A stretch of 64,000 nt of DNA from Candidatus Binatia bacterium (lineage in GTDB: Bacteria > Desulfobacterota > Binatia > UBA9968): contig JBOHVS010000376.1 in assembly GCA_050735975.1 (NCBI GenBank), forward strand, positions 2,986 to 66,985, given 5' to 3'. Within the stretch, counting starts at the first letter, position 1. Each line of letters opens with the position of its first letter. This document shows, piece after piece, positions 18,672 through 45,870 of this stretch. Under the pieces are notes generated by a model. That model saw nothing but the letters and a program-made list of their open reading frames with translations. It ran no database searches and was not told the DNA's origin. The translations under genes were made by a program, and so were the position numbers.

Positions 18672-19868
18672 ATGGATTTTTGTCTTTCACCCGAGGAAGA
18701 AAGCCTGCGTCGAAGAGTCGAACAGTTTGTTCGCGACGAGCTGATTCCTCGGGAGCCGGAGTTCGAAAACGCTCCGGATATCTTCGAAGGCAGTCGATGG
18801 AAGAGCCGCGCCAAATTGAGCCGCGATCCAGAAATCAAGCGCTACGTCGAGATCATGGAGGAATTGGAAAAGAAAGCGGAAGCCAAAGGATTATGGTCTC
18901 TCGACGTGCCAAAGGAATTTGGCGGGGAGCAAGTCAGTAATGTTGCGATGATCGCTATCACGGAAGAGCTGGAGAAGACTTCGATCCCTTTTGAGCTCGG
19001 CAATCACGTCTCGAATATTCTTTATAATTGTAAAGACCACCAGAAGGAGAAGTTCCTTTGGCCCTGCATCCGCGGCGAGAAGACATCCGCTTTCGGGCTT
19101 ACCGAGCCGGCATCCGGCGCGGATCCCTCCATGCTGCAGACTACCGCGACGCCGGACGGAGATTACTTCATCGTCAACGGCACGAAGATGTTTCCAACAT
19201 TCGCCGATGTCGCGGATTTCGTTCAGCTGTTCGCCCGCCTGCCGGGCACTCAGGGGCGCGAAGGAATCACCTGTTTTCTGATCGAGACAGGGACGCCGGG
19301 CTATCGTGTTGTGCGCAGCATTGCCACCATCGCCGGGACCGAGCCCTGTGAGCTCGTATTCGAGGATTGTAAGGTTCACAAGGATCAGGTCCTCGGCGAA
19401 ATCGGCAAAGGCTGGCAGTTGAACCAGGCTTGGCTCGGCGCCAGACGTTTTCAGGTGGGCATCCGCGCTCATGGACAGTCCCATCGAGTTTTGCGCTGTG
19501 TAGCGGGGTTGCTGCGCGGTGATCCCAACGATACCGGGCGATTCGCGCAGCCGCTCGGACGTTTTTTGGGAGAACTGGAGACGCTGCGAGCGCTTACGTA
19601 TTTCGGCGCTTGGAAGGCGGACCAGAAAATGGACGTTCGTTGCGAGGCCGCCGGCGTGAAACTGTTTGCGACGGAGCTGTTGCACAAAGTCGTTGATTTT
19701 GGCTTGGAAGTGGCCGGAGCTGCGGGGCTGCGAAAAGAGCATGTGCTGGCCCGAGCCTTCCGGCATGCAAGGGCCAGGCGCATTGTCGAGGGGCCGTCGG
19801 AAATCCAGCGCCATATCATCCAGCGCGCGCTGTTTCGGGAAGGAATCGCCATGATGGAGTTGCCGTAA
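18672..19868 (+). CDS. Acyl-CoA dehydrogenase (catalytically complete)
   Basis: FGLTEPASGADPS, NGTKMF, and the C-terminal RRIVEGPSEIQRHII with Glu at the MCAD catalytic position. Confidence 0.9.
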   Translation: MDFCLSPEEESLRRRVEQFVRDELIPREPEFENAPDIFEGSRWKSRAKLSRDPEIKRYVEIMEELEKKAEAKGLWSLDVPKEFGGEQVSNVAMIAITEELEKTSIPFELGNHVSNILYNCKDHQKEKFLWPCIRGEKTSAFGLTEPASGADPSMLQTTATPDGDYFIVNGTKMFPTFADVADFVQLFARLPGTQGREGITCFLIETGTPGYRVVRSIATIAGTEPCELVFEDCKVHKDQVLGEIGKGWQLNQAWLGARRFQVGIRAHGQSHRVLRCVAGLLRGDPNDTGRFAQPLGRFLGELETLRALTYFGAWKADQKMDVRCEAAGVKLFATELLHKVVDFGLEVAGAAGLRKEHVLARAFRHARARRIVEGPSEIQRHIIQRALFREGIAMMELP

Positions 19869-19945
19869 TGCAGGCCTTTTTGCTCGGCCTACAACACAGG
19901 TTTCTCGGCAGGCGGTCTACAGTGTAACTATCGCCTTGTTCAGGT

Positions 19946-21073
19946 ATGGATCTTAAATTAAGTGAAGAAGAAAAACTCGTCAGAGAAACTGCCGCGCAAT
20001 TCGTTTCACGCGAGCTGATCGCCCGTGAGGGCAGATATCTAAAGCAGGAGGAATCTTTTTTGCCGCCTGGCGACCCGCCGCGCCGTGAGCTCGATCCGGA
20101 AGTTCGAGCGACCCTCGCGAGGGTTGCGAAGGGCATCGGTCTTTGGGCGCTGGAGCTTCCGCCGGAGGCGGATAGCCCGGCGCCAAGCGCCATGGCGCGC
20201 GTCTTGATCTATCGCGAGTTCGGCCGAACCATCCTGCCTTTTGCGCCTCCGTATATTCCAGCCTTGATGGCGAACCATGCTCACGCGGAAGCACTTGCGG
20301 ATGGTGAGATGTCTCTCGCGCTTGCCTTCGATCAAATTCATAAGAGTGGGACCCCGGGCGGCGTCGAGACGCGGTTCCGTCCAACGACGGAAGGTTATGT
20401 CTTGAGCAACTCCGACGTTGAGGCGCTCGATCCGGCTGTGGATCTTTACCTGTTGCCGGCACGGGAACAGGGCACCAACCGCGTGTGTCTGTTCTTGCTG
20501 CGCCGCGACACCCGTGGGTTCTCCATTGGCGACGAGGTCGATCTTACAACGGATTCGACGGTTGCGAGACTGACGTTGCGCGACTGCAGGGTGCCGGCGG
20601 ACGCTCTCATAGGCTATGAGTACGAAACCGCCGCGATCGTCGCCAGCGAACAGTTGCGGATCGCCGCCCGTTGTTTGGGGATTGGGATGCGTTGTCTGGC
20701 AGATTCTATAGAGCATGCGCGCAACCGTATAACGTTCGGCCGGCCGCTGGCCGCCCGGCAGTCTATCCAGTGGATGCTGGCGGACTTGTCCATCGACTTG
20801 GGCACCTGCACGTGGCTGACCCTGGAGGCGGCCTGGCGCGCCGATCAAGAACGGCCTTATTTCATGGCAGCCGCTCTGGCGAAGAAGAGAGCCGCCAAAA
20901 TGGCCTTCGAGGCGGCAGACACGGCAATCCAAATACACGGCGGATACGGAGTTTGCAAAGAGTTCCCGTATGAAGGGTTCTATCGGGAAGCGCGCTTGCT
21001 GCGGCTGCTTTACGGACGCGAAGCGGAACTGGACCGAGCGATCGGGGAAAAGTTTCTAAAGGCTGAAAGTTGA
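19946..21073 (+). CDS. Acyl-CoA dehydrogenase-fold protein with degenerate FAD/substrate motifs
   Basis: The ACAD C-terminal helical domain is recognisable (ITFGRPLAARQSIQWMLADL, IQIHGGYG). The TEPxxGSD motif is replaced by AFDQIHKSGT, and the YEG Glu position reads LLYGREAE (Tyr). Confidence 0.8.
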   Translation: MDLKLSEEEKLVRETAAQFVSRELIAREGRYLKQEESFLPPGDPPRRELDPEVRATLARVAKGIGLWALELPPEADSPAPSAMARVLIYREFGRTILPFAPPYIPALMANHAHAEALADGEMSLALAFDQIHKSGTPGGVETRFRPTTEGYVLSNSDVEALDPAVDLYLLPAREQGTNRVCLFLLRRDTRGFSIGDEVDLTTDSTVARLTLRDCRVPADALIGYEYETAAIVASEQLRIAARCLGIGMRCLADSIEHARNRITFGRPLAARQSIQWMLADLSIDLGTCTWLTLEAAWRADQERPYFMAAALAKKRAAKMAFEAADTAIQIHGGYGVCKEFPYEGFYREARLLRLLYGREAELDRAIGEKFLKAES

Positions 21074-21133
21074 TGATTTCCATTCTCGAGTTTTCAGTCC
21101 AGTAGAACTCGAGAGTGTTGGAAAACCTGTTTA

Positions 21134-21297
21134 CAGGCCGGTCAAAAAGATCTCAGATGCGAGGCGCGCATTCCGAGCAGATTGGGAAGGCTGAGGCCGA
21201 GCTTAACCTTAACCTCAAGCAGCGAGTGGAACGAGCGCAACGCCTGCCTGTGCGGCGCACGCAGACAGGAAGCGGGTGAGTCTTTTTCAACGCCCTG
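21134..21297. repeat. Composite: R1 arms enclosing R10 and R2 modules
   Basis: Left arm CAGGCCGGTCAAAAAGATCTCAGATGCGAGGCG, internal GCTTAACCTTAACCTCAAGC and CGCCTGCCTGTGCGGCGCACGCAGACAGG, right arm TGAGTCTTTTTCAACGCCC. Confidence 0.75.
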
Positions 21298-21308
21298 GGA
21301 GGGAGACC

Positions 21309-22460
21309 ATGCGACGTAAGAACGTGTGCTTCATAAGCTACGGTTCGACAGAGTATTCGAGGAAATCCGAGGACTCGGTGTTGACCCACTATGCAAATGC
21401 CATACGCCAGGCGCTGCAGCGAATCGGTCTGCACAAAAAAGAGATCCAGGGGCTTTCGATTACGACGCAAGCGAGTCCCGATTTCTCGCCGCACGTGGCC
21501 GAGCAACTGGGACTGGAACTGGATTGGGTGTTGAACGGAGATTACGGCGGGGCCGGTGGCGTTATGAGCGTGCGCCGGGCGGCGGATGCGATCGAGGCGG
21601 GCCATATCGAGATGGCGGTGCTTGTCGGCGGCAACTCGTTCGATAAGAGCGTCCCGCACCAGCGGCCGCTGGAATATCAGCGCGCTAACTATGTGGATGT
21701 TTATGGTTACGGCGGGCCCAATAGCCTCATGGCGCTGATTCAACGCCTGCATATGGAGCAGTACGGGACGATCATCGAGCAGATAGGAAAAATTGCCTTG
21801 GCCCAGCGTTACAACGCGCTGAACAATCCGCAAGCGTTGTTTCGCGAACCGATGAGCATGGATGATTATTTGAATTCACGGATGATCTCCGATCCGATTC
21901 GTCTCTTCGATTGCGTGATGCCATGCTCGGGCGCCGAATGCATTATTCTCGCCTCCGAAGAAAAAGCAAAGAAGATCACCGATAAGTTGGTCTATCTGGT
22001 CACTGACGCGGAGAGGGTGCATTATCAGGTCGGCAACATGGCGCCGGATAAGACGACGTTTGGGACGAAAGTGGTCGGCGATCGTCTCTTCAGCGAGGTT
22101 AAACGGGAAGATATCGATCTATTCGAGATCTACGACGACTACCCGATCGCGGTCATGATTCAGATCGAGGATCTCGGCTATTGTAAAAAAGGCGATGGGG
22201 GAAAGTTTGTCGATTCCCACGACTTGACCTATAAGGGCGATTTCCCTGTGAACACCGGCGGAGGCGAGCTTTCGGTCGGACAGGCAGGTTTAGCCGGCGG
22301 TTTCCTTCATATTGTCGAAGCGCTGCGTCAGCTGAGGGGCGAGTCTGAGGGGCACCAGGTACAGAAAGCCGAGCGCGCGTTGGTAACCGGTATCGGTTGG
22401 CTAAACTACGGGCGTAATCTCGGCACCACGGCTGGCTTGGTCATCGAAAGGAGAAAATAA
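21309..22460 (+). CDS. Thiolase-fold protein, SCP2/Ltp-type, lacking canonical catalytic residues
   Basis: ATG at 21309 after GGGAGGGA. The upstream part of ORF 21276 lies in a repeat. SCP2-thiolase-like C-terminus ...ALRQLRGESEGHQV..., but the Cys/His positions are substituted (see findings). Confidence 0.8.
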   Translation: MRRKNVCFISYGSTEYSRKSEDSVLTHYANAIRQALQRIGLHKKEIQGLSITTQASPDFSPHVAEQLGLELDWVLNGDYGGAGGVMSVRRAADAIEAGHIEMAVLVGGNSFDKSVPHQRPLEYQRANYVDVYGYGGPNSLMALIQRLHMEQYGTIIEQIGKIALAQRYNALNNPQALFREPMSMDDYLNSRMISDPIRLFDCVMPCSGAECIILASEEKAKKITDKLVYLVTDAERVHYQVGNMAPDKTTFGTKVVGDRLFSEVKREDIDLFEIYDDYPIAVMIQIEDLGYCKKGDGGKFVDSHDLTYKGDFPVNTGGGELSVGQAGLAGGFLHIVEALRQLRGESEGHQVQKAERALVTGIGWLNYGRNLGTTAGLVIERRK

Positions 22461-22897
22461 TGGCGGAATCAAGTCAGCCAAAGAAGAGTTTGCCCAAGAT
22501 CAATCCTATCGATCAACCCTACTGGCAAGGCGCCGCGGCCAGCAGGCTCCTGCTGCAGAAATGTAAGGATTGCGGCAAGCTTCAGTTTTTTCCCAGGCCG
22601 GTCTGTCTAGATTGCTTCAGCGGCAATCTCGAGTGGGTGCAAGCGTCGGGCAAGGGCAAGATCCACAGCTTTACCTGGGTGCGCGTGCCGCGCAGTCCGG
22701 CGTTTAAGGGAGAGACCCCGATTTGCTACATCAACGTTATCCTCGATGAAGGAGTCATCATGGAAAGCCGCCTCCTTGGGAACGGGGCGGAAGGAGTCAA
22801 GCTCGGCGACCGGGTGAAAGTCGCTTTTCAGGAGACGCATGATCCCGCAATCAAGTTGCCGGTGTTTGAGCTGGAGGGGCAATCCGCGCGGGAATGA
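22460..22897 (+). CDS. DUF35 OB-fold / Zn-ribbon protein (thiolase partner)
   Basis: Start overlaps the upstream stop (TAATG). Zn ribbon CKDCGKLQFFPRPVCLDC followed by an OB-fold segment. Confidence 0.85.
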   Translation: MAESSQPKKSLPKINPIDQPYWQGAAASRLLLQKCKDCGKLQFFPRPVCLDCFSGNLEWVQASGKGKIHSFTWVRVPRSPAFKGETPICYINVILDEGVIMESRLLGNGAEGVKLGDRVKVAFQETHDPAIKLPVFELEGQSARE

Positions 22898-23733
22898 CGA
22901 TAAGCAGCGTATTCAACCGGCACGCTGGAAAGGTAACAATGGTATTCCAACATTTACTGTTTGAAGTTCGCGATCAGGTAGCGTTCGTGACATTTAACCG
23001 ACCGGAGTCGATGAACGCGTACAACCGGCAGATGACGCGGGAGCTGATCGACGTGTGCAGGCATTGTGAGGGGGAGAGCGGGATCCGCGCGGCGATTTTT
23101 ACGGGAGCAGGCGACAAAGCTTTTTCCGCGGGGATGGATTTAAAGGAGCGGGCCGAAGCTCCCTTTTCGTTCATCGAACGACGTTATCAGAAGCTTGCCG
23201 CGACCATCTATACCCAGGCGCGCGCCGTGGCGGCTATCACAAAGCCGACCATTGCGGCGATCCGCGGATACTGTCTGGGTGGAGGTCTCGAGTTCGCGCT
23301 CGCGTGCGACATGCGGATTGCGGCTGAAGACGCCAAACTCGGGCTCACGGAAGTTCGGCGCGGGCTTATACCAGGGGCAGGCGGCACGCAAAGGCTGGCG
23401 CGCCTGGTAGGCACGGCCAAAGCATTGGAGATTTGTCTAACCGGCGACGCCGTGAGCGGGAGCGAAGCGTACCGATTGGGTCTTGTAAATGCGGTAGTGA
23501 CCCCGGATGCGGTGCTCAAAACGGCGGAGGATCTCGCTAACAGAATTCTTAAGGGAGCGCCGATGTCGGTAGCGTTTATCAAGGAAGCCATCAACAAAGG
23601 CATCGAGCTGCCGCTGGAACAAGGGCTTCGACTCGAAGCGGATCTGTCCGCCCTCGTTGCCACAACGGAAGACAGCAAGGAAGGGCCGCGCGCGTTTGTT
23701 GAGAAGAGAGAGCCGGTGTGGAAGGGAAAGTAA
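22894..23733 (+). CDS. Enoyl-CoA hydratase/isomerase (crotonase)
   Basis: VTFNRPESMNA, TGAGDKAFSAGMDLKE, GYCLGGGLEFALACD, GLTEVRRGLIPGAGG. ATGA overlap with DUF35. An alternative start at 22939 is possible. Confidence 0.9.
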   Translation: MTISSVFNRHAGKVTMVFQHLLFEVRDQVAFVTFNRPESMNAYNRQMTRELIDVCRHCEGESGIRAAIFTGAGDKAFSAGMDLKERAEAPFSFIERRYQKLAATIYTQARAVAAITKPTIAAIRGYCLGGGLEFALACDMRIAAEDAKLGLTEVRRGLIPGAGGTQRLARLVGTAKALEICLTGDAVSGSEAYRLGLVNAVVTPDAVLKTAEDLANRILKGAPMSVAFIKEAINKGIELPLEQGLRLEADLSALVATTEDSKEGPRAFVEKREPVWKGK

Positions 23734-23737
23734 ACAA

Positions 23738-23854
23738 TTTTGGATTTTCGATTTTAGATTTTCGATTGTCGGGGAATCAATCAACTCCAAATTCCAAAGT
23801 TTGTTCCGGAGTGTCTTGGCTATAATCTAAAATCCAAAATCAAAAATCTAAAAT
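23738..23854. repeat. Family R5 palindrome (AATCTAAAATCCAAAAT)
   Basis: Arms TTTTGGATTTTCGATTTTAGATTTTCGATT and AATCTAAAATCCAAAATCAAAAATCTAAAAT. The 17-mer at 23824-23840 is identical to 35754-35770. Confidence 0.8.
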
Positions 23855-23865
23855 GGAGTGAGTGA

Positions 23866-24681
23866 ATGGAGAGTCAGAAAGTTCTTTACGGCGTTAAAGA
23901 CAAAATTGCATGGATCACGTTGAGTCGGCCGGAATCCTTGAATGCCGTCAATCAGGAGATGCAAAAAGATATTATCAAGTTTTGCCGAATAGCGAACGAG
24001 GATCGGGAGGTTCAAGTCGTCATTTTCAAAGGAGCCGGAGAGAGGGCGTTTTCCGTCGGAGGCGACATAAAGGACCGGGCAAAGGCGAACGCCGAGGCCG
24101 GCGCAGGGCGGGAATCGCCGCTGGCGAGTAGACAAGCAAGGTTTACTTCCGGTATCCGGACACCTCCGCAAGCCATAGCAGCTCTCAACAAGGTCTCGAT
24201 CGCGTTAGTTCACGGCTATGTGATCGGGACGGGATTGTTGATGAGCCTTGCCTGCGATATCCGTATCGCCGCGGACAATGCCAGATTGGGGCTTAGCGAG
24301 GTCCGTCTCGGATTCATCCCGGCGTCAGGAGGGACACAGCGGATGGCGCGCCTCGTGGGCATTCCGAAAGCCCTGGAGATTTGTCTTTCCGGTGAACTTT
24401 TTGACGCGCAAGAAGCTTATCGAATCGGTCTCGTCAATCAACTGGTCGCCTATGATCAGTTGATACCGGCGGGTGAAAAAATGGCGCAATCCTTTATCAA
24501 AGGCGCTCCACTGGCAATGCGTTATATCAGGGAAGCGATTTACAAGGGAAGCGACCTTTCGCTGGAGCAAGGACTTCGATTCGAATCCGATCTTGCCGGG
24601 ATGGTGTCGAACACCGAAGATGCCAAGGAAGGGCCGCGCGCATTCGTTGAGAAGCGGCCGCCGGTGTGGAAAGGCAAGTAA
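23866..24681 (+). CDS. Enoyl-CoA hydratase/isomerase (crotonase), tandem paralogue
   Basis: ITLSRPESLNA, GAGERAFSVGGDIK, GLSEVRLGFIPASGG. The C-terminus KEGPRAFVEKRPPVWKGK is nearly identical to the upstream paralogue. Confidence 0.9.
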   Translation: MESQKVLYGVKDKIAWITLSRPESLNAVNQEMQKDIIKFCRIANEDREVQVVIFKGAGERAFSVGGDIKDRAKANAEAGAGRESPLASRQARFTSGIRTPPQAIAALNKVSIALVHGYVIGTGLLMSLACDIRIAADNARLGLSEVRLGFIPASGGTQRMARLVGIPKALEICLSGELFDAQEAYRIGLVNQLVAYDQLIPAGEKMAQSFIKGAPLAMRYIREAIYKGSDLSLEQGLRFESDLAGMVSNTEDAKEGPRAFVEKRPPVWKGK

Positions 24682-24685
24682 GAAG

Positions 24686-24816
24686 ATAGAGACAGAGACA
24701 GAGAGGGGATTCTGAATACTGGCTCCTGAGTAAAGAGAGACAGGAGCCGACAGAAAGATATGGACGGAGATGAAGAGGGAAGAGCGCGACGTTCCGAAGT
24801 GTTCTGTCTCTGTCTG
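24686..24816. repeat. Family R7 (AGACAGAGACAGAGA)
   Basis: AGAGACAGAGACAGAG at the left end, reverse-complementary CTGTCTCTGTCT at the right end. Confidence 0.75.
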
Positions 24817-24825
24817 GAATGAGTT

Positions 24826-26382: not shown

Positions 26383-26404
26383 GAAAGGTCGCGAACAACA
26401 ACGT

Positions 26405-27271: not shown

Positions 27272-27422
27272 ACAAAAACCCATCCAGGCGGCCCTGAGCA
27301 GAGTCGAAGGGTTGCGAGCTTTTCTTAAAGATCTCCGGTCTTGGTCCAAAACGCTTTCTTTGTTATGGTGCGACCTATCCATTTTACGATCAGTGCCGCG
27401 ACTTGACGTTTGGAGGTGAACC

Positions 27423-28238: not shown

Positions 28239-28293
28239 CAGCGAGGAGCGGTTTGTCAAAGATTTTACTGGCTGCTCGAACATAGGACTTGAA

Positions 28294-37937: not shown

Positions 37938-37939
37938 AG

Positions 37940-38920
37940 TTAGATATTGACTCGATCCATATCTCTGGCGCGCGGGCCGGCGGCAACTCCAGGTGGAAAG
38001 ACCGCGTTTAACCGGTTCAGGTCGTCTTTGCTGAGCTTGATGTCGACGGCCTTGAGGTTTTCCTCCAAATGCCGGCGGCTCTTGTTGCTGGGAATCGGGA
38101 TGATGTCTTCGCCCTGGGCCAGCAACCACGCAAGCGCGATCTGCGCCGATGTCGCTGATTTCTCTTTGGCGAATTCTTCGAAGCGGGTGAGCAGGTTTAG
38201 ATTGTGCTCGATGTTGCCCGATTGAAAGCGCGGGTGATTGTTACGGCTGTCGTTTTCGGAAATGTCATTACGGCTATGCACGGCACCCGCGAAGAAGCCT
38301 CGTCCGAGAGGAGAGTAGGCCATGAAACCCATGCCGAATTCCCGGCACGCCTGAATGTTGCCGGCTTCGGGATCGCGGGACCACAATGAATACTCCATTT
38401 GCAATGAGGCGATGGGATGCACTTTTCGCGCCCGGCGGATGGAATCGGCGCTCGCTTCCGAAAGACCGACATAACGGGCCTTGCCTTGCTCTACGAGCCG
38501 CGCCATGGCGCCGACCGATTCCTCGACGGGGACTTTAGGATCGACGCGCGACATGCAGAATATGTCGAGACAGTCGATGCCGAGACGCTGCAGGCTTTGC
38601 TCGCAGTTCTGAGTTAAGTAATCGGGTGAGCTGCCGCTGCGATTTCCACTCTCATCGGGCGCGCGGGGGCTACCCGACTTGGAATGAATCACGATCCTTT
38701 CGCGCCTGCCTTTGAGCGTTCGGGCGATCAATTCGTGATTATGGCCGTTGCCGTAACTGGCCGACGTATCGAGAAAGTTGATGCCGAGATCGAAGGCGCG
38801 GTGCAAGGTGGCTATGGATTCGTTGTCATCGGCACTCCCATAGACACCGGACATGCTCATGCAGCCGAGGCCCAACCGCGAGACCTCGAACCCGGTAGTT
38901 CCGAACTTGCGATATTCCAT
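37940..38920 (-). CDS. Aldo/keto reductase
   Basis: ATG at 38918-38920 gives MEYRKFGTTGFEVSRLGLGCMSMSG. Also FDLGINFLDTSASYGNGHNE and YVGLSE. Confidence 0.9.
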   Translation of the reverse strand: MEYRKFGTTGFEVSRLGLGCMSMSGVYGSADDNESIATLHRAFDLGINFLDTSASYGNGHNHELIARTLKGRRERIVIHSKSGSPRAPDESGNRSGSSPDYLTQNCEQSLQRLGIDCLDIFCMSRVDPKVPVEESVGAMARLVEQGKARYVGLSEASADSIRRARKVHPIASLQMEYSLWSRDPEAGNIQACREFGMGFMAYSPLGRGFFAGAVHSRNDISENDSRNNHPRFQSGNIEHNLNLLTRFEEFAKEKSATSAQIALAWLLAQGEDIIPIPSNKSRRHLEENLKAVDIKLSKDDLNRLNAVFPPGVAAGPRARDMDRVNI

Positions 38921-39039
38921 ATAACTTCCCTGTCGCTGATGGCTAAGGAGGAACGGGCCGAGGTCAGAAGTCAAGGGTTGAAAAGCTTTGCTTCTCTATC
39001 CATGACTCCACCTCCTTAGCAATTATCACCGCATTTCGA

Positions 39040-40665
39040 CTACCCAGTCTCCCATTTGACTGAGATCGAGCTGTGGACCCGCTTTACTCCAGGCACATTG
39101 CGTGCAGCCTCTTCGGCGGCGGCTTTTTGCTTTCCCGATAGGACCGCGCCGGTAAGGTAGGCTGTATCATTAACAAACGCCACGACCACGCCCTCGACCG
39201 CCCGCTGGTGAATAGCTCTGTCTATCTGATTTTCTATCGCTTTTTGCCACGAAGCCGCCGAAGGGGGCGGATTAGCGTCCGGAAATTTCTTTTCCGGCGG
39301 CGACACATCGGACGGTCCGCCGGGTGCCATGTTACTGCTGCCAAGCGGGTTTCCGTTTGTCCCTGGAGGGGTGGGGATGGGTTTCAACGTCGTGGGGTCT
39401 CTGTCGCGCGGCGCTTGCTCGCTCTCAGGTTTTTGTGCGGTAGCGAAATCCTGGTACGGCGGAAGCTCAGGCGCCGGCTGCTTCTTTTCAAGCACACGGT
39501 CAAAAAAACTTTGCGATAGGGGATGATTGGATCCGTAAAATTCCCACAGACCAATCATACCCATCCCGATGACCAGCAACCCTGCCACTTTTGTAGTCCT
39601 GCGTCCTGCCTTTCGCGCGAACGGCGCTGGGATCGGTTCGCTGAATTCGCTGAAAATGCTGGCTGTTTCCGGGGGCGGCAATCTCCATTGATCCTCCAAC
39701 GGGGGATCCTCTGACGGGGGATCATCCAACGGTTTTCGAGCCGTCAACGTGCGTACGCGTCTAGAAATCGTGTCACCGTTCGGATCAAGCCAGGACAACG
39801 CAACGGAATCATCTTCTGGATCATGCAAAACTTTTTTAGAAATCCAATTTCGGTATAGGTCCGCGTTGAGCCGCTCTGCGTGAATAGGCTGCCGCATCTC
39901 GTTCTGCAGAGCGCATGCGTTGATCGCGCGAGGGTTGGCGCTTTCTTCAACGAAAACACGGTCGTTGACGGCCCTAAGATCATACCCGTCAGGGAAAACG
40001 ACGAGCCCTCTTACCTTGATGTCAGATGTCTGTCTGTGATCGTCAAAGAAGGCGGTAAGCTTATCTTCAACGATTCTCATCGCTTGCTTCGCTCGCCTGA
40101 CCGGGTTGTCAATCGGGAAGTCTCTTCCATCGGATAGGGTCAAGAGCCAAGGTCCTTCAGGAATTAATGATTTATGAACACTCGCCTGCTCAATGCCACA
40201 AGGATCGACGATTGCCGCGACCGTAATCCCGTGAGGAGCGACCGCCAGGAGATCGGCGTCGAGATCCATTCCAAACCATGGTGTCTCGCTCGGGTCCAAT
40301 CGTGAGAAGGCTTCCGCCAGGTTTTCATTGATCTTCTTCTTAAAGCCGGAAGCGTCGTAAGGCTTACGACGAGATTCCGTTTGTTGATCAACTTGATCAA
40401 GAGGTGGCGTGATTTCGGATTCTGGCTCAGGGGATGATGTCGCCTGCAGTTCTTCTGCGCTGCTGTCAGTAATCTCGGTTGGACGTTGCTGGTTCAGATC
40501 CGCCCCGCACTTTCCGCAAAATCCGTCAACTTGCTCGCCTAAATTGCCGCACGATGGACACTGCTGGCCGGAGGCTTGGTCTGGAGGCGCAAAGCGCAAA
40601 CCATGATTTGGGCAATAGTTATAAGAATCAGGATATACTAAACGACAAAGCCGACAGTATTTCAC
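39040..40665 (-). CDS. Membrane-anchored multidomain protein: double Zn-ribbon + degenerate NERD-like domain + TM + Pro-rich linker + BON domain
   Basis: GTG start. CRLC..CPNHG and CPSCG..CGKCG ribbons. DADLLAVAPHGITVAAIVDPCG ... DNPVRRAKQAMRIVEDKL resembles a NERD layout. TM segment VAGLLVIGMGMIGLWEFYG. C-terminal VVVAFVNDTAYLTGAVLSGKQKAAAEEAARNVPGVKRV is BON-like. Confidence 0.65.
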   Translation of the reverse strand: MKYCRLCRLVYPDSYNYCPNHGLRFAPPDQASGQQCPSCGNLGEQVDGFCGKCGADLNQQRPTEITDSSAEELQATSSPEPESEITPPLDQVDQQTESRRKPYDASGFKKKINENLAEAFSRLDPSETPWFGMDLDADLLAVAPHGITVAAIVDPCGIEQASVHKSLIPEGPWLLTLSDGRDFPIDNPVRRAKQAMRIVEDKLTAFFDDHRQTSDIKVRGLVVFPDGYDLRAVNDRVFVEESANPRAINACALQNEMRQPIHAERLNADLYRNWISKKVLHDPEDDSVALSWLDPNGDTISRRVRTLTARKPLDDPPSEDPPLEDQWRLPPPETASIFSEFSEPIPAPFARKAGRRTTKVAGLLVIGMGMIGLWEFYGSNHPLSQSFFDRVLEKKQPAPELPPYQDFATAQKPESEQAPRDRDPTTLKPIPTPPGTNGNPLGSSNMAPGGPSDVSPPEKKFPDANPPPSAASWQKAIENQIDRAIHQRAVEGVVVAFVNDTAYLTGAVLSGKQKAAAEEAARNVPGVKRVHSSISVKWETG

Positions 40666-41148: not shown

Positions 41149-41973
41149 ATGGCAGTGACGAAAGAATACAAGACGGTCAAAGTTGACAAAGAAGACGGGA
41201 TCACGTGGGTCATTTTGAACCGGCCGGAGAAGAGAAACGCGATGAACCCGCAGCTTCACTACGACATGCTCGAAGCGCTGACGGAGCTGGAGGTCGACAA
41301 GGAAACGCAAGTGGTGGTAATTACGGGCGCCGGGCCGAGCTGGTGCGCAGGGCAGGATCTGCGCGAGTACTTTCGCGGCACCGACGATAACGCGATCGAA
41401 AGACGTAAGGCGAGCTGGGCCTCTCAGGAGTGGCGCTGGCGCAGGCTGTTCACCTTCCCAAAACCCACCATCGCCATGGTCAACGGGTTTTGCTTCGGCG
41501 GGGCTTTCACGCCGCTCATCGCCTGTGATTTTGCCATCGCCGCCGAGGACGCGATCTTTGGTTTGAGCGAAATCAACTGGGGTATCTTTCCGGGCGGATT
41601 GGTGAGCCGGGTTTTGGCGGATGCTATGAGTTATCGTGACGCCATGTACTACATCATGACGGGAGATCCGTTCGACGGCAAGAAGGCCGCGGAGTTGAAG
41701 CTCGTGAATTACGCTGTACCGAAGGAAAAGCTGCGTGAAGAAACAGTCAAGCTGGCGAAGAAGCTGATGGAGAAGAATCCGCAGGTGCTTAGAGCGGCGA
41801 AGGAAGTTTACAAGTACTGCCGCAATATGGATTACAACCAGGCCGAGGATTACATGTCGGCGAAGGGAACCGCTTTGCGGCTGAGCGATCCGGAAAAGGG
41901 ACGCGAGACCGGTATGAAGCAGTTCCTTGACGAAAAGACCTACCGGCCGGGATTGGGCACCTACAAGCGATAA
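41149..41973 (+). CDS. Hydroxycinnamoyl-CoA (feruloyl-CoA) hydratase/lyase-like crotonase (HCHL subfamily)
   Basis: Colinear with Pseudomonas HCHL as I recall it: KTVKV..EDGI.WVILNRPEKRNAM, KPTIAMVNG.CFGG, FGLSEINWGI.PG, NP.VLRAAK, and the diagnostic tail GMKQFLDEKTYRPGLGTYKR. SD AAGGAGGG upstream. Confidence 0.9.
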   Translation: MAVTKEYKTVKVDKEDGITWVILNRPEKRNAMNPQLHYDMLEALTELEVDKETQVVVITGAGPSWCAGQDLREYFRGTDDNAIERRKASWASQEWRWRRLFTFPKPTIAMVNGFCFGGAFTPLIACDFAIAAEDAIFGLSEINWGIFPGGLVSRVLADAMSYRDAMYYIMTGDPFDGKKAAELKLVNYAVPKEKLREETVKLAKKLMEKNPQVLRAAKEVYKYCRNMDYNQAEDYMSAKGTALRLSDPEKGRETGMKQFLDEKTYRPGLGTYKR

Positions 41974-41974
41974 G

Positions 41975-42117
41975 CAGACAGAGACAGAGATGAAGAGACA
42001 GAGAGGGATGAAGAGATAGAGACAGAGAAAAACAGACAGAGATAGTGAAAGAGATAGAGCCCTTGAAGGCCATTAGGTTCTTGGGCGGGATCTCTGTCTC
42101 AAATCTCTGTCTCTGTG
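41975..42117. repeat. Family R7 copy
   Basis: CAGACAGAGACAGAGATGAAGAGACAGAGAG ... TCTCTGTCTCAAATCTCTGTCTCTGTG. Confidence 0.75.
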
Positions 42118-42132
42118 TAATGGTTGATCAAC

Positions 42133-43299
42133 ATGGATTTCAACTTACCCGAAGAGCTTCAGGTACTGAAGGAAACGGTTCGAAAGTTCGTCGATCGAGA
42201 GCTGATCCCTCTGGAGCGGGAGTGCCGCCCGGAGGGCGAGGAGATGCCGGAAAAGTTCATTAAGCCGCTGCAGGAAAAAGCGAAAGCCATCGGATTGTGG
42301 TTGCTTGATGTGCCGCAGGAATATGGCGGGGCCGGTCTCGATCTGCTCAGCCGGTGCGTGATCATGGAAGAGGTGGCGCGGACGGTCGCGATTCCTTTTC
42401 GCTACGCGCCGATCTTTGGCCCTGAAGTGAGGCCGGTGCTGTTTCATTGCAACGAGGAGCAGAAAGAGCGGTTCCTTTTCCCGGTCATGCGGGGAGAGAA
42501 GCGTATGTGCTTCGCGCAGACCGAGCCGGATGCAGGCAGCGACCCCGCGGGGATGAAAACTCGCGCCGTTAGAGACGGCGATCATTATGTTGTCAATGGC
42601 ACAAAGCGCTTTATCACCGGTGCAAAAAACGCTGATTACGCGCAAGTGATCGCGGTCACCGATCCCGAGAAACGGGCGCGCGGCGGCGTTACTTGCTTCA
42701 TTGTCGACATGAAGGCTCCGGGAGTTACGCTTGAGCGGCTTTGGCCGACCATGATGGGCGATACGCCGGGTCAAATTCTATTCGAGAACGTACGAGTGCC
42801 TGCGGCCAACATTATCGGCGGCGAAGGCCAGGGCTTCTCCATCGCCCAGAAATGGATTCAAGAGGGACGCATACGCGGGCACGGCGCGCGGCCGGCCGGC
42901 ATCGCGCAGCGGGCGCTCGATATGATGATCGAGTACTCCAAGGTGCGGACGACGTTTGGCCGTCCGCTTTCGGATCGCCAGGCGATTCAGTTCATGATCG
43001 CCGACTCGGCGATGGAACTGCACGCCTGCCGATTGATGGTTTACGAATGCGCCTGGCGTCATGACCGGGAGGAAGACGTTCGCCAGCTTTCCTATATGAC
43101 CAAGATCATGTGCGCCGAAATGGCGAGCCGAGTCGTGGATCGCTCGATCCAAGTTCACGGCGGTGTCGGGCTCACTCGCGACCTGCCTCTCGAATGGTGG
43201 TACCGCCAGGTGCGGAGCATCCGCATCACCGAAGGGACGCCGGAAGTCCTACGTTGGCGACTAGCAGAACATCTCATCAAAAGTCATAAACCATTATGA
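42133..43299 (+). CDS. Acyl-CoA dehydrogenase, paralogue of 35787..36941
   Basis: MDFNLPEELQVLKETVRKFVD, QTEPDAGSDPAG, NGTKRFITGA, ITEGTPEVLR. Confidence 0.9.
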   Translation: MDFNLPEELQVLKETVRKFVDRELIPLERECRPEGEEMPEKFIKPLQEKAKAIGLWLLDVPQEYGGAGLDLLSRCVIMEEVARTVAIPFRYAPIFGPEVRPVLFHCNEEQKERFLFPVMRGEKRMCFAQTEPDAGSDPAGMKTRAVRDGDHYVVNGTKRFITGAKNADYAQVIAVTDPEKRARGGVTCFIVDMKAPGVTLERLWPTMMGDTPGQILFENVRVPAANIIGGEGQGFSIAQKWIQEGRIRGHGARPAGIAQRALDMMIEYSKVRTTFGRPLSDRQAIQFMIADSAMELHACRLMVYECAWRHDREEDVRQLSYMTKIMCAEMASRVVDRSIQVHGGVGLTRDLPLEWWYRQVRSIRITEGTPEVLRWRLAEHLIKSHKPL

Positions 43300-44549
43300 C
43301 GGCGATCGCGGATGCAAGTTCCCTAGCCCGCGTTGCGGGAGAGGGTCAGGGTGAGGGTGCAACCGCTCTCCTGCCCGGCTTCCGTGTCCTGGATTTGAGT
43401 TCTTCGATGGGGGCATTTTGCGGCAAGCTGCTGCGCGACCTGGGAATGGACGTTATCAAGGTCGAACAGCCGGGAGGCGACGCCGCCCGCTCCGAGCCGC
43501 CCTTTGCCAAAGGCCATACTCACCGCGAAGGAAGCCTTCGTTTCGCGTACCTCAACGCGGGCAAGCGCAGCATCACGCTCGACATCACGAAGGAGACCGG
43601 CCGGAAGCTCTTGTTCGACTTGGTGGCGCGCTCTGATATTGTGCTGGAAACCTTCGAACCGGGCTATCTGGCCGCGCACCATATCGGCTACGAGTCCATG
43701 ATAGCACGCCAGGAAAAAATAATTTTGGTTTCCCTCACCGGTTTCGGCCAGGACGGACCCTACGCTCATTTTAAGACACCGGATATCGTTGGCACGGCTA
43801 TGGGCGGTTTGCTCTATATCAGCGGCGATCCAAAGCTCACGCCATGCAATCCACCGGAGACGCAATCGTATTATTACGCGAGTCTTTTCGCGGCTTACGG
43901 CGTGATGCTCGCGCTCTGGCAGCGGCAGACGCGCGGCATCGGCGCGTTCATCGATGCGTCGATTCAAGCGAGCATGGCGCTGCACGAGCACGTCGCTTTC
44001 AACTATTCGGCGGAGGGGCGGGTGATGAAGCGCGCCGGCAGCCAGCACCAGCACAATGCGCCGGCCAATCTTTTTAAGTGCAAGAACGGTTACATCGCGC
44101 TCTTCGTCACGCAAAATCACTGGCCGCTTCTGCTGAAGGTTTGGGAAGATCATGCGCCGGAGCTCGACGATCCAAAGTGGATCAACAGCAACTTGCGGCG
44201 CGCTAACGCCGACTATATCAACGCGCAAGTGACTTCTTTCACTTCCCGGTTTCTCAAAGAAGACCTCGCCGAACTGATGCAAAAGCACGGCATACCGGGT
44301 CTGCCGGTCAACTCGCCGTCAGACTTTATGAAGGACCCGCACATACGGGCGCGGGGGTTTTTTAGCAAAGTCACACACCCGGTGCTTGGTCCCTATGATC
44401 AGCCGGGCAGCCCATTCATGGTGGACGGCAAACGCTCGGCGCCTTTGCCACCGCCGCTTTTGGGGCAGCACAACGAGGAAGTGTTTTGCGGCGAACTCGG
44501 TCTCACCCGGCGAGACCTGGAAGTGTTGGTCGCGGACGGCGTGATCTGA
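43296..44549 (+). CDS. Family III CoA-transferase, A-type subunit
   Basis: ATGA overlap with the ACAD. Colinear with module A of the 798-aa fusion (for example GGLLYISGDPKLTPCNPPETQSYYYASLFAAYGVMLAL versus GGLMYISGDPSLPPCKAPETQAYYFGSLFAAIGVLAAL). Confidence 0.9.
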   Translation: MTAIADASSLARVAGEGQGEGATALLPGFRVLDLSSSMGAFCGKLLRDLGMDVIKVEQPGGDAARSEPPFAKGHTHREGSLRFAYLNAGKRSITLDITKETGRKLLFDLVARSDIVLETFEPGYLAAHHIGYESMIARQEKIILVSLTGFGQDGPYAHFKTPDIVGTAMGGLLYISGDPKLTPCNPPETQSYYYASLFAAYGVMLALWQRQTRGIGAFIDASIQASMALHEHVAFNYSAEGRVMKRAGSQHQHNAPANLFKCKNGYIALFVTQNHWPLLLKVWEDHAPELDDPKWINSNLRRANADYINAQVTSFTSRFLKEDLAELMQKHGIPGLPVNSPSDFMKDPHIRARGFFSKVTHPVLGPYDQPGSPFMVDGKRSAPLPPPLLGQHNEEVFCGELGLTRRDLEVLVADGVI

Positions 44550-44550
44550 A

Positions 44551-44641
44551 TGCGAATGTCAAATTGCAAAGTGCAAAACGGAGATTGTGAAATTTCGGAC
44601 AAAGATTTGCGTTTTGCAATTTGCATTCTGCAATTTGCATT
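44551..44641. repeat. Family R4 palindromic copy
   Basis: AAATTGCAAAGTGCAAAACG ... CGTTTTGCAATTTGCATTCTGCAATTTGCA. Lies between the two CoA-transferase genes and contains the spurious ATG 44587. Confidence 0.8.
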
Positions 44642-44655
44642 GGACCGGGGAATCC

Positions 44656-45870
44656 GTGCATAGCGCGAATCGTATACTCGAGGGCGTTCGCATCCTGACT
44701 TTCACGACCGGGTACGCCGGTCCTTACGCCGGCAGGTTGTTGTCCGGGTACGGCGCCGAAGTCATTAAAATAGAGTCGCGCAAAGGCGGACTCGATACTT
44801 TCCGCCATTACGGACAGCACAAAGATATCGACGCGGCGCCCAGGTTCATCGAATGCAATCTCGGGGTTCGCTCCTTTTCCGTGAACCTTAAACACCCTAT
44901 CGGGGTTCGGCTCATCAGGGAGTTGGCCGGCAAATCGGATGCGATCTTGCAGAATTTTCGGCCCAGGGTGTTGGATAAACTGGGTTTGGGCGACGACGAA
45001 CTCAGAAAGGTCAACCCCAAACTGGTAATTTTGAAATTGCCGGGCTTCGGTTCCGAAGGACCCAAAAGCGGCTATGGGACCTGGGGATTCAATCTCACGG
45101 CCTTTTCCGGCATGACCTACCTCTGGAATCATCCTGAGCAGGATCGACCCATCGGCAGTCAAGGAGTTTATCCCGACCATCTGGGCTTCATTATGGGGCC
45201 GACCATCATGGTCGCCGCGCTGCTGCGCAGCCGGCTCACAGGGAAGGGAGTCTCCGTCGATCTGGCGCAGATTGAAGGCACCGCCTACACGCTGGGGTCG
45301 ACGTACTTGGATGCGGCCGTGAACAGCCGTGATCCACAGCCGAAAGGCAACCGCGACCCGGTTGCCGCGCCCCACGGCTGCTACCCCTGCGAGGGGGAGG
45401 ATCGTTGGTGCGTCATCTCAGTTCGGACTGAAGAAGAATGGCGTAGCTTTTGTCAAGTCATCGGCCAGACGGAATTGGCGAGCGATGCTCGTTTCGCGGA
45501 CCTTCAGTCCCGGATAAAGCATCTCCGTGAGCTTGACGTTATTGTTCAGCGATGGACGGAAGCGAGAAGCGCGGAAGAGGTGATGGCCAAGCTCCAATCC
45601 ATGGGCGTCCCCGCCGGTGTTGTGCAAACCGGCGCGGATCTCCTCAAGGACCCGCAGTTGCGACACAGGAACTACTTTGCCGCATTTTCGGACTCCCTTA
45701 TCGGTCCTTTCGAAATTCCTCGCGGCGGATTTTTGTTCAAAGGGATGACTGAAGAACCGCTGCGGCTGCCTAACAGGTTCGGCTCCGACAACGAGCAAAT
45801 TCTGGGAGATATTCTAGGTTACGACAAAGCATCCATTGCCAAGTGGCAAACCGAGGAAATTTTGACTTAG
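44656..45870 (+). CDS. Family III CoA-transferase, B-type subunit
   Basis: Colinear with module B of the fusion (IESRKGGLD, NLTAFSGMTYLWNHP, IGSQGVYPDH). GTG at 44656 is preferred because ATG 44587 lies inside a palindromic repeat. The start is uncertain. Confidence 0.85.
   Translation: MHSANRILEGVRILTFTTGYAGPYAGRLLSGYGAEVIKIESRKGGLDTFRHYGQHKDIDAAPRFIECNLGVRSFSVNLKHPIGVRLIRELAGKSDAILQNFRPRVLDKLGLGDDELRKVNPKLVILKLPGFGSEGPKSGYGTWGFNLTAFSGMTYLWNHPEQDRPIGSQGVYPDHLGFIMGPTIMVAALLRSRLTGKGVSVDLAQIEGTAYTLGSTYLDAAVNSRDPQPKGNRDPVAAPHGCYPCEGEDRWCVISVRTEEEWRSFCQVIGQTELASDARFADLQSRIKHLRELDVIVQRWTEARSAEEVMAKLQSMGVPAGVVQTGADLLKDPQLRHRNYFAAFSDSLIGPFEIPRGGFLFKGMTEEPLRLPNRFGSDNEQILGDILGYDKASIAKWQTEEILT

Follow-up and report, generated by a model that had tools for sequence, protein, structure and literature searches.

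Two conserved operons for putative CoA-ester catabolism in a Candidatus Binatia contig, one with a predicted cysteine-less retro-aldolase at its core

Uncultured bacteria of the class Binatia are widespread in soils and sediments, and genomes are the only basis on which their carbon sources have been inferred. The window analysed here is a stretch of 64,000 nucleotides from a Candidatus Binatia bacterium (assembly GCA_050735975.1, contig JBOHVS010000376.1, positions 2,986 to 66,985). It carries two operons for the catabolism of CoA esters, and near the start of the first lies a gene for a thiolase-fold protein without a catalytic cysteine. An earlier reading of the bare sequence (the original prediction) had placed these genes in one supercluster of about 27 kb that would activate, desaturate and hydrate an acid and cleave it by retro-aldol chemistry. 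All substantial open reading frames (ORFs) of the window, together with small gap ORFs and end fragments, were profiled against Pfam and NCBIfam, and all window proteins were compared by tblastn with related loci from metagenomes and metagenome-assembled genomes (MAGs). These loci carry labels such as L001 and L003; L003/L008 is contig JACQUW010000363.1 of GCA_016210115.1.

Operon 1 (18672-36941, plus strand) begins with two acyl-CoA dehydrogenase (ACAD) genes, ACADalpha (18672-19868; three ACAD domains) and ACADbeta (19946-21073; of the ACAD domains, the C-terminal ones alone pass the threshold of Pfam). The thiolase-fold gene follows (listed as 21276-22460, with a probable start at 21309 from the starts of its homologues, giving 383 aa), and then a free-standing DUF35 gene (22460-22897; 145 aa; zf-ChsH2 and OB_ChsH2_C). 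Next come the crotonases ECH1 (22894-23733; ECH_1, 234 bits) and ECH2 (23866-24681; ECH_1, 200 bits), an AMP-forming acyl-CoA ligase (24826-26382; AMP-binding, 252 bits), an alpha/beta-fold serine hydrolase (26405-27271; Abhydrolase_1 and Abhydrolase_6), a third crotonase, ECH3 (27423-28238; ECH_1, 141 bits), and a fused two-domain family III CoA-transferase of 798 aa (28294-30690; CoA_transf_3 twice, 641 bits). An importer block at 30735-34726, which matches SBP_bac_8 and SBP_bac_6, consists of a solute-binding protein (30735-31775), a fused double permease (31805-33541; BPD_transp_1 twice) and a second solute-binding protein (33683-34726). The last two genes encode ECH4h (34758-35579; PRK09120), a crotonase resembling hydroxycinnamoyl-CoA hydratase-lyase (HCHL), and ACAD3 (35598-36941 as listed; all ACAD domains). 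Operon 2 (41149-45870, plus strand) is shorter and encodes an HCHL-family crotonase (41149-41973; PRK09120), ACAD4 (42124-43299; all ACAD domains) and the CoA-transferase subunits CoATa (43296-44549; CoA_transf_3, 292 bits) and CoATb (44587-45870; CoA_transf_3, 296 bits).

Much of the original inventory is borne out by these profiles. The four ACAD-fold ORFs (18672-19868, 19946-21073, 35598-36941 and 42124-43299), the single ligase, the single alpha/beta hydrolase, the thiolase-fold/DUF35 pair and the binding-protein importer parts are all present, with no ABC ATPase adjacent to the importer. Six crotonases had been claimed; there are exactly five, and tblastn of each against the whole window gave no sixth. 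Three family III CoA-transferase units were also claimed, and there are three such ORFs, but the domains number four, 28294-30690 being a fusion of two. The reported lack of a 3-hydroxyacyl-CoA dehydrogenase (HAD), a short-chain dehydrogenase/reductase (SDR) or a cysteine-containing thiolase extends to the whole 64 kb, end fragments and small ORFs included, and a scan for HAD or SDR ORFs hidden in gaps or at the window ends found none. Just outside the coordinates that had been called free of dehydrogenases, however, lies a Rossmann-type ORF for a Zn-dependent medium-chain dehydrogenase/reductase (MDR; 17325-18374, minus strand; ADH_zinc_N and ADH_N).

The single supercluster does not hold. 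The related loci instead reveal two independently conserved operons, split here by unrelated minus-strand genes for a VOC protein (37156-37551; 131 aa), an aldo-keto reductase (37940-38974) and a BON-domain protein (39040-40665). Since none of these three is a conserved neighbour, the two operons merely happen to lie 4 kb apart in this genome. Elsewhere, operon 1 genes do not occur within 8 kb of operon 2, save for ECH4h-like genes in L166 and L170. A scan for promoters and terminators in operon 1 gave counts at or below shuffled expectation and is uninformative on the operon boundaries.

The gene order of operon 1 recurs in at least 30 species-level MAGs, and the order HCHL-ACAD4-CoATa-CoATb is kept in 28 of 31 operon 2 loci of at least 9 kb; the clustering is thus not due to chance. 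More than 100 metagenome proteins are 85-92% identical to the thiolase-fold protein. Scanning one genome per species identified 32 MAGs with an orthologue at 81-89% identity, the next relatives being at most 40% identical. Nearly all of these MAGs are labelled Candidatus Binatia or "delta proteobacterium", and the latter may be an older name for the Binatia lineage; the similarity thus points to Binatia, of the phylum Binatota, as the probable source of the window. The thiolase-fold gene is the most conserved member of the cluster, with identities to the window of 81-92% among related loci, compared with 71-88% for ACADalpha, 53-81% for ACADbeta, 67-82% for DUF35 and 62-83% for ECH1.

In the conserved core of operon 1, ACADalpha, ACADbeta, the thiolase-fold gene and DUF35 lie divergent from TctB, which may or may not be accompanied by an Amidohydro_2 gene. 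Next comes a variable solute-binding insert and, after it, ECH1, ECH2 and the ligase; wherever a related contig is long enough, it also shows the hydrolase, ECH3 and the fused transferase. L087 and L088 have a compact form with all genes in window order, plus a gene for an NMO-family flavoprotein before the transferase. This NMO-family (PF03060) gene stands between ECH3 and the fused transferase in L087 (16978-18096), L088, L089 and L090, where the window has 55 bases. In L001 the transferase directly abuts ECH4h (90% identical), which ACAD3 (88%) follows, and there are no ABC genes in between. The importer block is present in L003/L008 and absent from L001, indicating that it is an insertion into the operon; its solute-binding and permease proteins are weakly PhnS2/PhnU2-like by NCBIfam. 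L003/L008 also has an HCHL-like crotonase, 54% identical to the 41149-41973 protein, upstream of ACADalpha.

Operon 2 was traced in metagenomes with the 41149-41973 protein, and 80 loci were found at 82-93% identity. ACAD4 follows at 77-92% identity in all but two (L101 and L126) of the 31 longer loci. NMT1-type binding proteins are encoded in the flanks of operon 2 elsewhere. In L160 (14983-16673) and L110 (15164-16669), an SDR and a gene of the caffeoyl-CoA-O-methyltransferase family (PF01596) lie downstream of the HCHL operon, a weak hint of phenylpropanoid-CoA chemistry. The original prediction had also described duplicated cassettes of HCHL, ACAD and CoA-transferase, and these are true paralogues: ECH4h and the operon 2 HCHL protein are 45% identical, ACAD3 and ACAD4 56%, CoATa and the N half of the fused transferase 45%, and CoATb and the C half of fused orthologues about 44%.

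The thiolase-fold protein (21309-22460) is predicted to be a retro-aldolase of the Sal/Ltp2 type, with active-site residues of aldolases and not of thiolases. Among solved structures, its best matches are 4u4e, an unannotated "thiolase" (2e-51), 9myr, a "Nonspecific lipid-transfer protein" (9e-49), 7yvy, an acetyl-CoA acetyltransferase (7e-37), and 6ok1, a "Lipid-transfer protein" (2e-35). We take 9myr to be the CtShyDUF35-CtSal complex, 6ok1 to be TcLtp2 and 7yvy to be archaeal. The phmmer matches span residues 24-365 for 9myr (Sal, 170 bits) and 10-370 for 6ok1 (Ltp2, 126 bits). Among characterized proteins, its best relatives by sequence are the steroid retro-aldolases CtSal and TcLtp2. The structure 9MYR is mentioned in a study of Sal (PMC12329534), which names four clades, Sal, Ltp2, SLP and SCP2 thiolases. 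According to that study, the thiolase nucleophile is lost in both CtSal and TcLtp2, being Gly in CtSal; in TcLtp2 the base is Tyr294, which belongs to a Y-D-H-F motif, and the acid is Tyr344, and CtSal uses Tyr302 and Cys304 of a Y-D-C-Y motif, with Gln347 and Gln352 close by (PMC12329534).

The nucleophile position of the window protein is likewise Gly (DYGGAGG), as in 41 of 41 orthologues. Where Ltp2 has Y-D-H-F, Sal Y-D-C-Y and SCP2 thiolases H-D-C-F, it has Y275-D-D277-Y278. Tyr275 aligns with TcLtp2 Tyr294 and CtSal Tyr302 and is invariant in 42 orthologues. Gln325 is the equivalent of Sal Gln352, and Glu occupies the Sal Gln347 position. The Gly, the Y-D-D-Y motif and Gln325 are invariant in 41-42 orthologues. 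A Gly in place of the nucleophile, with the base Tyr kept, is a hallmark that excludes thiolysis while the catalytic base is retained. The original description of a Cys-less thiolase-fold protein resembling the Ltp2 aldolase is therefore supported by its Gly, by the Tyr of its Y-D-x-x motif and by its matches to CtSal and TcLtp2. At the positions of the other two catalytic residues the protein differs, with Asp277 at Sal Cys304 and Gly at Ltp2 Tyr344.

A scan of 1.8 billion proteins yielded 117 full-length representatives at 50% identity for a motif census. Of these, 107 have Gly in place of the nucleophile. The motifs counted include Y-D-D-Y (28), Y-D-C-F (26), Y-D-A-F (17), Y-D-S-F (10), Y-D-C-Y (8) and Y-D-H-F (3). 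The nearest relatives of the window protein, at 33-53% identity, have Y-D-D-Y without exception, and together with the overall count this marks Y-D-D-Y as a distinct and populated clade.

The free-standing DUF35 protein, with a zinc ribbon and an OB fold, is predicted to act as partner to the aldolase. The first base of its gene is also the final base of the thiolase-fold stop codon, and the two genes adjoin in essentially every related locus of sufficient length. All four Cys of the ribbon (C-x2-C-x10-C-x2-C) are kept in 39 of 39 orthologues. Pfam revealed no MaoC domain in the window, and the DUF35 is not carried on a hydratase.

Of the four ACADs, three carry the catalytic Glu. ACADalpha has it in the segment IVEGPSE, and it is kept in 31 of 31 orthologous segments; ACADbeta has Gly in its place (LLYGREAE) in 35 of 35 and always adjoins ACADalpha in the related loci. 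From these residues, ACADalpha is predicted to be the catalytic and ACADbeta the non-catalytic subunit of a heteromeric dehydrogenase of the alpha2beta2 type. The Glu lies in ITEGASE in ACAD3 and in ITEGTPE in ACAD4. The L001 orthologue of ACAD3 is 88% identical and 384 aa long, and ACAD3 probably starts at the ATG at 35787, also giving 384 aa, the listed TTG at 35598 being probably spurious. A non-coding insert of about 200 bases with a short inverted repeat (35580-35786) lies between ECH4h and this ATG; the counterparts of the two genes in L001 are only 13 bases apart.

The crotonases differ in their catalytic Glu residues. Both are present in ECH1 (GGGLEFAL and LTEVRRG) and conserved in its orthologues, and by these residues ECH1 reads as a canonical two-Glu enoyl-CoA hydratase. 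Its true start may be about 22939, since the orthologues in other loci are 264 aa. ECH2 is 50% identical to ECH1 and keeps the second Glu, with Leu at the position of the first in 18 of 18 orthologues. ECH3 has Ala at the first position and retains the second Glu, as do 6 of 6 orthologues; its score against PRK09120, the HCHL model, is 164 bits, under the cut-off of 276, making it distantly HCHL-like.

The original prediction named two HCHL-like hydratase/lyases, and two proteins do exceed the PRK09120 cut-off of 276 bits, the operon 2 protein clearly (414 bits) and ECH4h marginally (283.7 bits), ECH3 being the third that falls under it. The operon 2 protein scores 335 bits against the solved HCHL of Pseudomonas fluorescens (2j5i), and ECH4h scores 223 bits against solved HCHL. 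They share the HCHL arrangement of GGGFT and LSE[VI]N, and equivalents of Tyr75 and Glu143 align in both. Among orthologues of the operon 2 protein, Glu143 is kept in 82 of 82 segments and Tyr75 in 80 of 82. Ser123 is replaced by Thr in ECH4h and in the operon 2 protein, in the latter case throughout its orthologous segments. Tyr239 is replaced by Ser in the operon 2 protein, and its position holds Ser in 38, Gly in 32, Ala in 10, Glu in 2 and Tyr in none of the 82 segments; in ECH4h this region is not conserved. Work on 2VSS reportedly identified Tyr239 as a second Tyr that is paired with Tyr75 on the phenolic oxygen. Its loss weakens a strict reading of these proteins as HCHL. ECH4h is predicted to be a hydratase/lyase.

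The best NCBIfam model for the ligase is PRK06187, at 410 bits against a cut-off of 476; a FadD3-like model gives 303 bits, also below its cut-off. Ligase orthologues are found in 16 related loci. The serine hydrolase has the nucleophile elbow GHSLGG, and its best solved matches are 7al5 (9e-22) and 3qit (3e-21), the latter being, we believe, a polyketide thioesterase domain; it is possibly a thioesterase or a C-C hydrolase. The N half of the fused transferase best matches chain A of 9fn0 (3e-59) and the C half chain B (5e-55), a similarity at the level of the family. By these matches the CoA-transferases are BbsE/F-like, resembling benzylsuccinate CoA-transferase, a point that the original prediction missed. 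The N half alone carries an Asp in the segment ADIVAAAMGG, the C half having Gly instead. Similarly, CoATa has the Asp (PDIVGTAMGG) and CoATb a Gly (WGFNLTAFSG). We take the Asp of this [AP]-D-I-V-x-x-A-M-G-G segment to correspond to the catalytic Asp169 of formyl-CoA transferase.

A paired design thus appears to be repeated in the ACADs and in both copies of the CoA-transferase, one partner in each pair being without the catalytic residue; this too had been overlooked. The crotonases ECH1 and ECH2 would form a similar pair, ECH2 having only one of the two Glu, and the putative aldolase would have a non-catalytic partner in DUF35. The residue-lacking states of ACADbeta, the B half of the CoA-transferase and ECH2 are each conserved in orthologues. 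In steroid catabolism, a heteromeric make-up of this kind in ACADs and hydratases goes together with bulky substrates.

Divergent from operon 1 are genes for TctA (14063-15562, minus strand; Pfam TctA, 398 bits) and TctB (15751-16236, minus strand; Pfam TctB), the large and small membrane subunits of a tripartite tricarboxylate-type transporter, an Amidohydro_2 protein (16249-17274, minus strand) and the MDR dehydrogenase. TctB is next to the ACAD pair in most related loci (55-74% identity), and TctA orthologues (81-91%) are beside the cluster in L001, L009, L025, L033 and L034. The Amidohydro_2 protein, which starts at Met19 of a long ORF reaching 17328, has the motifs D33-G-H35 and D317-Y-P-H-W-D322, and all six motif residues are invariant in 11 orthologues. 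Its five best solved matches are 6m1w (taken here as AibH), SfbO, DitZ, 8sm7 and PtmU3 (phmmer, 85-113 bits), and the C-terminal motif aligns. On these grounds it is a candidate amidohydrolase-related dinuclear oxygenase (ARO), a putative C-H hydroxylase that the original prediction did not recognize. In a study of AROs (PMC13154177), their signature is an N-terminal D-x-H with a C-terminal D-x-P-H-x-D/E, described as absent from the characterized hydrolases and decarboxylases of the fold. Substrates whose C-H bonds the known AROs hydroxylate are 2-aminoisobutyrate, a sulfonate and diterpenoid acids (PMC13154177). The 8sm7 entry belongs to the same ARO structure series by deposition. A neighbouring Rieske ferredoxin led to the discovery of many AROs. 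The window protein has both signature motifs, like AibH2, SfbO, DitZ and PtmU3, but the similarity is remote and, unlike the Rieske-linked AROs, it has no such partner here: none of the ORFs of the window that were scanned with Pfam has a Rieske or ferredoxin domain. Elsewhere in the window are two more Amidohydro_2 proteins (10728-11732 and 46556-47560), both with H-x-H and neither with the ARO motif.

The end of the MDR gene overlaps the start of the long ARO ORF by 4 bases. The best NCBIfam match of the MDR protein is tdh-like, at 122 bits far below the cut-off. Its orthologues (83-92%) were found in L004, L009, L010 and L011 only, about 4 of 34 related loci, and ARO orthologues in about 11, roughly a third. 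With so limited a distribution, both genes are accessory.

The original prediction that the locus matches no named pathway agrees with the lack of any high-identity match to the bbs, igr/cholate or cou/fer clusters. No relevant literature was found on a pathway that combines HCHL, ACAD and CoA-transferase, and the main text of the Binatota genome paper does not mention these enzymes. By its predicted products, the locus appears to work like the igr/Shy-Sal and HCHL systems and to borrow the family set of bbs, yet it departs from each in defining features. The Shy-Sal system of Comamonas and the igr system (ChsE1-ChsE2, ChsH1-ChsH2 and Ltp2) share with it the logic of dehydrogenation, hydration and retro-aldol cleavage on a CoA thioester. 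Also common to them are the thiolase fold with Gly for Cys, the Tyr of a Y-D-x-x motif and a zinc-ribbon DUF35 partner, and a heteromeric ACAD with one catalytic and one non-catalytic subunit. However, the similarity to Sal and Ltp2 is remote, the motif is Y-D-D-Y and not Y-D-C-Y or Y-D-H-F, and the Ltp2 Tyr344 position is Gly. The DUF35 is separate, unlike the tail of the MaoC hydratase in Shy and ChsH2, and the hydratases here are crotonases. Nor is there a specific relationship between the ACAD pair and ChsE (4x28, only 1e-11); steroid-ring genes are absent, and the host is of an uncultured Binatia-like lineage. The term igr-like therefore stands for the Ltp2-like aldolase with its DUF35 but not for the remainder, given the free DUF35, the missing MaoC hydratase and the missing Tyr344 or Cys304 acid.

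With HCHL (2J5I/2VSS), the operon 2 protein shares the crotonase fold, the single catalytic Glu143 and Tyr75, and presumably the chemistry of hydration and retro-aldol cleavage; it differs from the Pseudomonas enzyme in the Tyr239 to Ser and Ser123 to Thr replacements. Its gene is accompanied by those for an ACAD and for the two subunits of a family III CoA-transferase, unlike the feruloyl-CoA synthetase and vanillin dehydrogenase of HCHL loci. The bbs system (BbsEF, BbsG, BbsH, BbsCD and BbsAB) draws on the same families, namely, a two-subunit family III CoA-transferase, an ACAD, a crotonase and a DUF35 with an SCP2-type thiolase fold. Unlike bbs, the locus has no BbsCD-type dehydrogenase and no catalytic Cys, and its transferase subunits are fused in one copy. 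The BbsB model gives 106.8 bits (cut-off 750) and the BbsA model 32.3 bits (cut-off 250). Direct membership in the bbs, igr or cai systems was considered and is ruled out by model scores together with missing components.

It is somewhat probable that these are two catabolic operons, each of which would shorten a CoA-activated carboxylic acid without a 3-ketoacyl intermediate, by desaturation, hydration and retro-aldol cleavage. From the gene content, active-site residues, paralogy and conservation observed at the locus, we infer each reaction and the order of the steps. In operon 1, the acid would be taken up and activated by the AMP-forming ligase or by the BbsEF-like CoA-transferase. The heteromeric ACADalpha/beta, with its Glu on alpha only, would desaturate the CoA ester, and two-Glu ECH1, possibly with its one-Glu paralogue ECH2, would hydrate the double bond. 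The Cys-less aldolase, held by the zinc-ribbon DUF35, would then cleave the C2-C3 bond of the 3-hydroxyacyl-CoA, with Tyr275 as base and Asp277 as the proposed acid, to give an aldehyde or ketone and a short acyl-CoA. A second round, on another carboxyl side chain, may be performed by the CoA-transferase, ACAD3 and the HCHL-like hydratase/lyase. Operon 2 would be a paralogous four-gene repeat of this second scheme, i.e., CoA transfer, desaturation, and hydration with lyase cleavage. The divergent operon may contribute uptake (TctAB), the candidate O2-dependent hydroxylase (ARO) and the Zn dehydrogenase. A retro-aldol route is needed where the hydrated carbon cannot become a ketone or where a keto intermediate is avoided; the known examples are the C17 side chains of steroids and hydroxycinnamates.

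The paired design and the enzyme families favour a bulky acid, either alicyclic/terpenoid or aryl-alkyl, and possibly a dicarboxylate. A bulky alicyclic or terpenoid acid fits the paired subunits, the relatives of the ARO and the NMO gene of related loci; the relatives HCHL and BbsEF, like the tricarboxylate-type transporters, accord with an aryl-alkyl acid or a substituted succinate. A bolder proposal, which we regard as doubtful though worth stating, is that the Y-D-D-Y proteins are a third class of CoA-thioester retro-aldolase, using Tyr and Asp where the others use Tyr/Cys or Tyr/Tyr, and working with a free DUF35 and with hydratases of the crotonase and not the MaoC type, which would anchor a pathway found throughout the Binatia lineage. 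With four enzyme families paired, that pathway would strip the side chains, with no keto intermediate, from an acid that is bulky and abundant in soil; candidates would be terpenoid, hopanoid and resin acids and dicarboxylates derived from lignin, and the dinuclear oxygenase might prime the substrate.

Several points weigh against the proposed keto-free scheme. The proved general acids are absent from the thiolase-fold protein, neither Cys304 nor Tyr344 being present by alignment. The third motif position is highly variable across the wider family (D, C, A, S, G, H, N or P), and for this reason the role of Asp277 as acid is speculative. An AlphaFold2 model built from 21 near-identical sequences had a mean predicted local distance difference test score (pLDDT) of only 38.6. 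The cluster of L003/L008 has no ECH1 or ECH2 orthologue and has an HCHL-like crotonase in their stead, suggesting that the hydratase partner of the aldolase may vary between lineages. The NMO-family flavoprotein, frequent in related loci, has no use in the scheme, and ECH2, ECH3, the hydrolase and the GNAT acetyltransferase that follows operon 2 have no firm step in it. Moreover, the MDR dehydrogenase adjoins operon 1, and a dehydrogenase and thiolase could come from elsewhere in the genome.

The last two points lead to ordinary or modified beta-oxidation, in which the dehydrogenase and thiolase are encoded elsewhere, or MDR is the dehydrogenase, and the thiolase-fold/DUF35 pair serves for scaffolding or binding. 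In its favour, ECH1 has the two Glu of a standard hydratase, the MDR gene lies 300 bp upstream on the other strand, and housekeeping enzymes are often recruited by catabolic clusters. DUF35 proteins also act as scaffolds in other complexes (PMC12329534). Nevertheless, no HAD, SDR or second thiolase is on the Pfam gene lists for L001, L003, L004 and L087-L090, seven related loci, MDR is present in so few loci, the thiolase-fold gene is the most conserved of all with its catalytic Tyr invariant, and three further crotonases are of the lyase-like single-Glu type; we consider beta-oxidation quite unlikely. The original reading of the content as activation, desaturation, hydration and retro-aldol cleavage, and not classical beta-oxidation, is upheld as far as neither dehydrogenase nor thiolase appears here or in the seven loci; its chemistry is predicted. 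The lignin phenylpropanoids that had been guessed as substrates are unlikely, although most credible for operon 2. A dihydro-hydroxycinnamate would become a CoA ester through the transferase, hydroxycinnamoyl-CoA through ACAD, and hydroxybenzaldehyde and acetyl-CoA through HCHL. The HCHL scores of the operon 2 protein, its Tyr75 and Glu143, the O-methyltransferase-family gene and SDR downstream in two related loci, and decarboxylase-type Amidohydro_2 and HpcH aldolase genes close by are consistent with this route, as is the ACAD beside HCHL in the Acinetobacter hca cluster. Against it, the Tyr239 equivalent is never Tyr among the 82 segments, Pfam detected no aldehyde dehydrogenase or feruloyl-CoA synthetase in the window or the conserved flanks, the CoA-transferases look like the dicarboxylate enzyme BbsEF, and nothing links the operon 1 aldolase to aromatic substrates.

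That likeness to BbsEF would be explained if the substrates were substituted succinates or other dicarboxylates, degraded by a non-oxidative variant of bbs. Here a succinyl-CoA-dependent transferase and an ACAD would yield an ylidene-succinyl-CoA, which the HCHL-like enzyme or the aldolase would split into an aldehyde and succinyl-CoA; the succinyl-CoA released would recharge the transferase, and so no ATP would be needed. The families of the bbs operon include a transferase pair, an ACAD, a crotonase and a DUF35 with an SCP2-type thiolase. In keeping with this, the two subunits of benzylsuccinate CoA-transferase are the best matches of the halves of the fused transferase, conservation extends to the neighbouring tricarboxylate-type transporters, and operon 2 is without a ligase. 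However, the BbsA and BbsB models are far below their cut-offs, the window has no fumarate-adding enzyme, the transferase similarity is at the family level only and operon 1 has an ATP-dependent ligase, which makes such a variant improbable. Least likely of all is the opening of an alicyclic ring, with the single-Glu crotonases acting as hydrolases like BadI, Oah or EchA20 after MDR or another dehydrogenase has made a 3-oxo intermediate. A Zn-dependent MDR serves as the hydroxyacyl-CoA dehydrogenase in the benzoyl-CoA pathway of Thauera, and the enzyme families overlap those of steroid C/D-ring breakdown (heteromeric ACAD, FadD3-like ligase, NMO-family flavoprotein of related loci, and crotonases). 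In addition, the ARO relatives DitZ and PtmU3 act on diterpenoids (PMC13154177). Yet no BadI, MenB, Oah or EchA20 model comes near its cut-off in NCBIfam, MDR and NMO genes are each found in only some loci, the window being without NMO, and the conserved core, with its aldolase-type protein, is left unexplained.

The logic of the chemistry proposed here is already known; the interest of the locus lies in the new motif of the putative Y-D-D-Y aldolase clade at the core, in its conservation and in the repeated paired design. Uncharacterized catabolic clusters are common in MAGs, which tempers the significance of any one of them, but this locus is among the best conserved catabolic gene sets of Binatia, and in more than 30 species-level genomes the identity of its aldolase-like protein is 81-92%. 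Should retro-aldol cleavage prove to be its chemistry, thiolase-fold aldolases would extend beyond steroid degraders, and a family of interest in steroid biocatalysis would gain a new catalytic motif. It would also provide a handle on which recalcitrant branched or cyclic acids Binatia remove from soil. The repetition of paired subunits across enzyme families is a possible metagenome marker for pathways of bulky CoA esters.

Several further genes of the window lie outside the two operons. The GNAT acetyltransferase gene (45967-46503, plus strand; Acetyltransf_3, 130 bits) has orthologues (63-69% identity) downstream of the CoA-transferase genes in 10 loci. The VOC protein at 37156-37551 was considered as a methylmalonyl-CoA epimerase, had no NCBIfam match and is treated as unrelated. 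Beyond TctA, a pair of Amidohydro_2 (H-x-H) and Amidohydro_3 genes occupies 10728-13560 (minus strand); the same pair in the same order, plus a thiamine pyrophosphate enzyme, is found in L087 (1996-4690) and may be a further part of the conserved neighbourhood. The region 46556-52038 encodes a decarboxylase/hydrolase-type Amidohydro_2 protein, an HpcH/HpaI-family aldolase, a fused DctM-type TRAP membrane protein and an NMT1_3 (TAXI-type) binding protein. It is perhaps a separate small catabolic unit and is not conserved beside operon 2 in other loci. At 60085-61137 (minus strand), an ORF of 350 aa matches the IS200-like Y1 transposase domain over residues 37-144 only and exceeds typical IS200 transposases in length. 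Finally, the ORF at 63130-63999 (plus strand), which runs off the end of the window, encodes an aldo-keto reductase with a twin-arginine signal, and an exported enzyme of this family is unusual.

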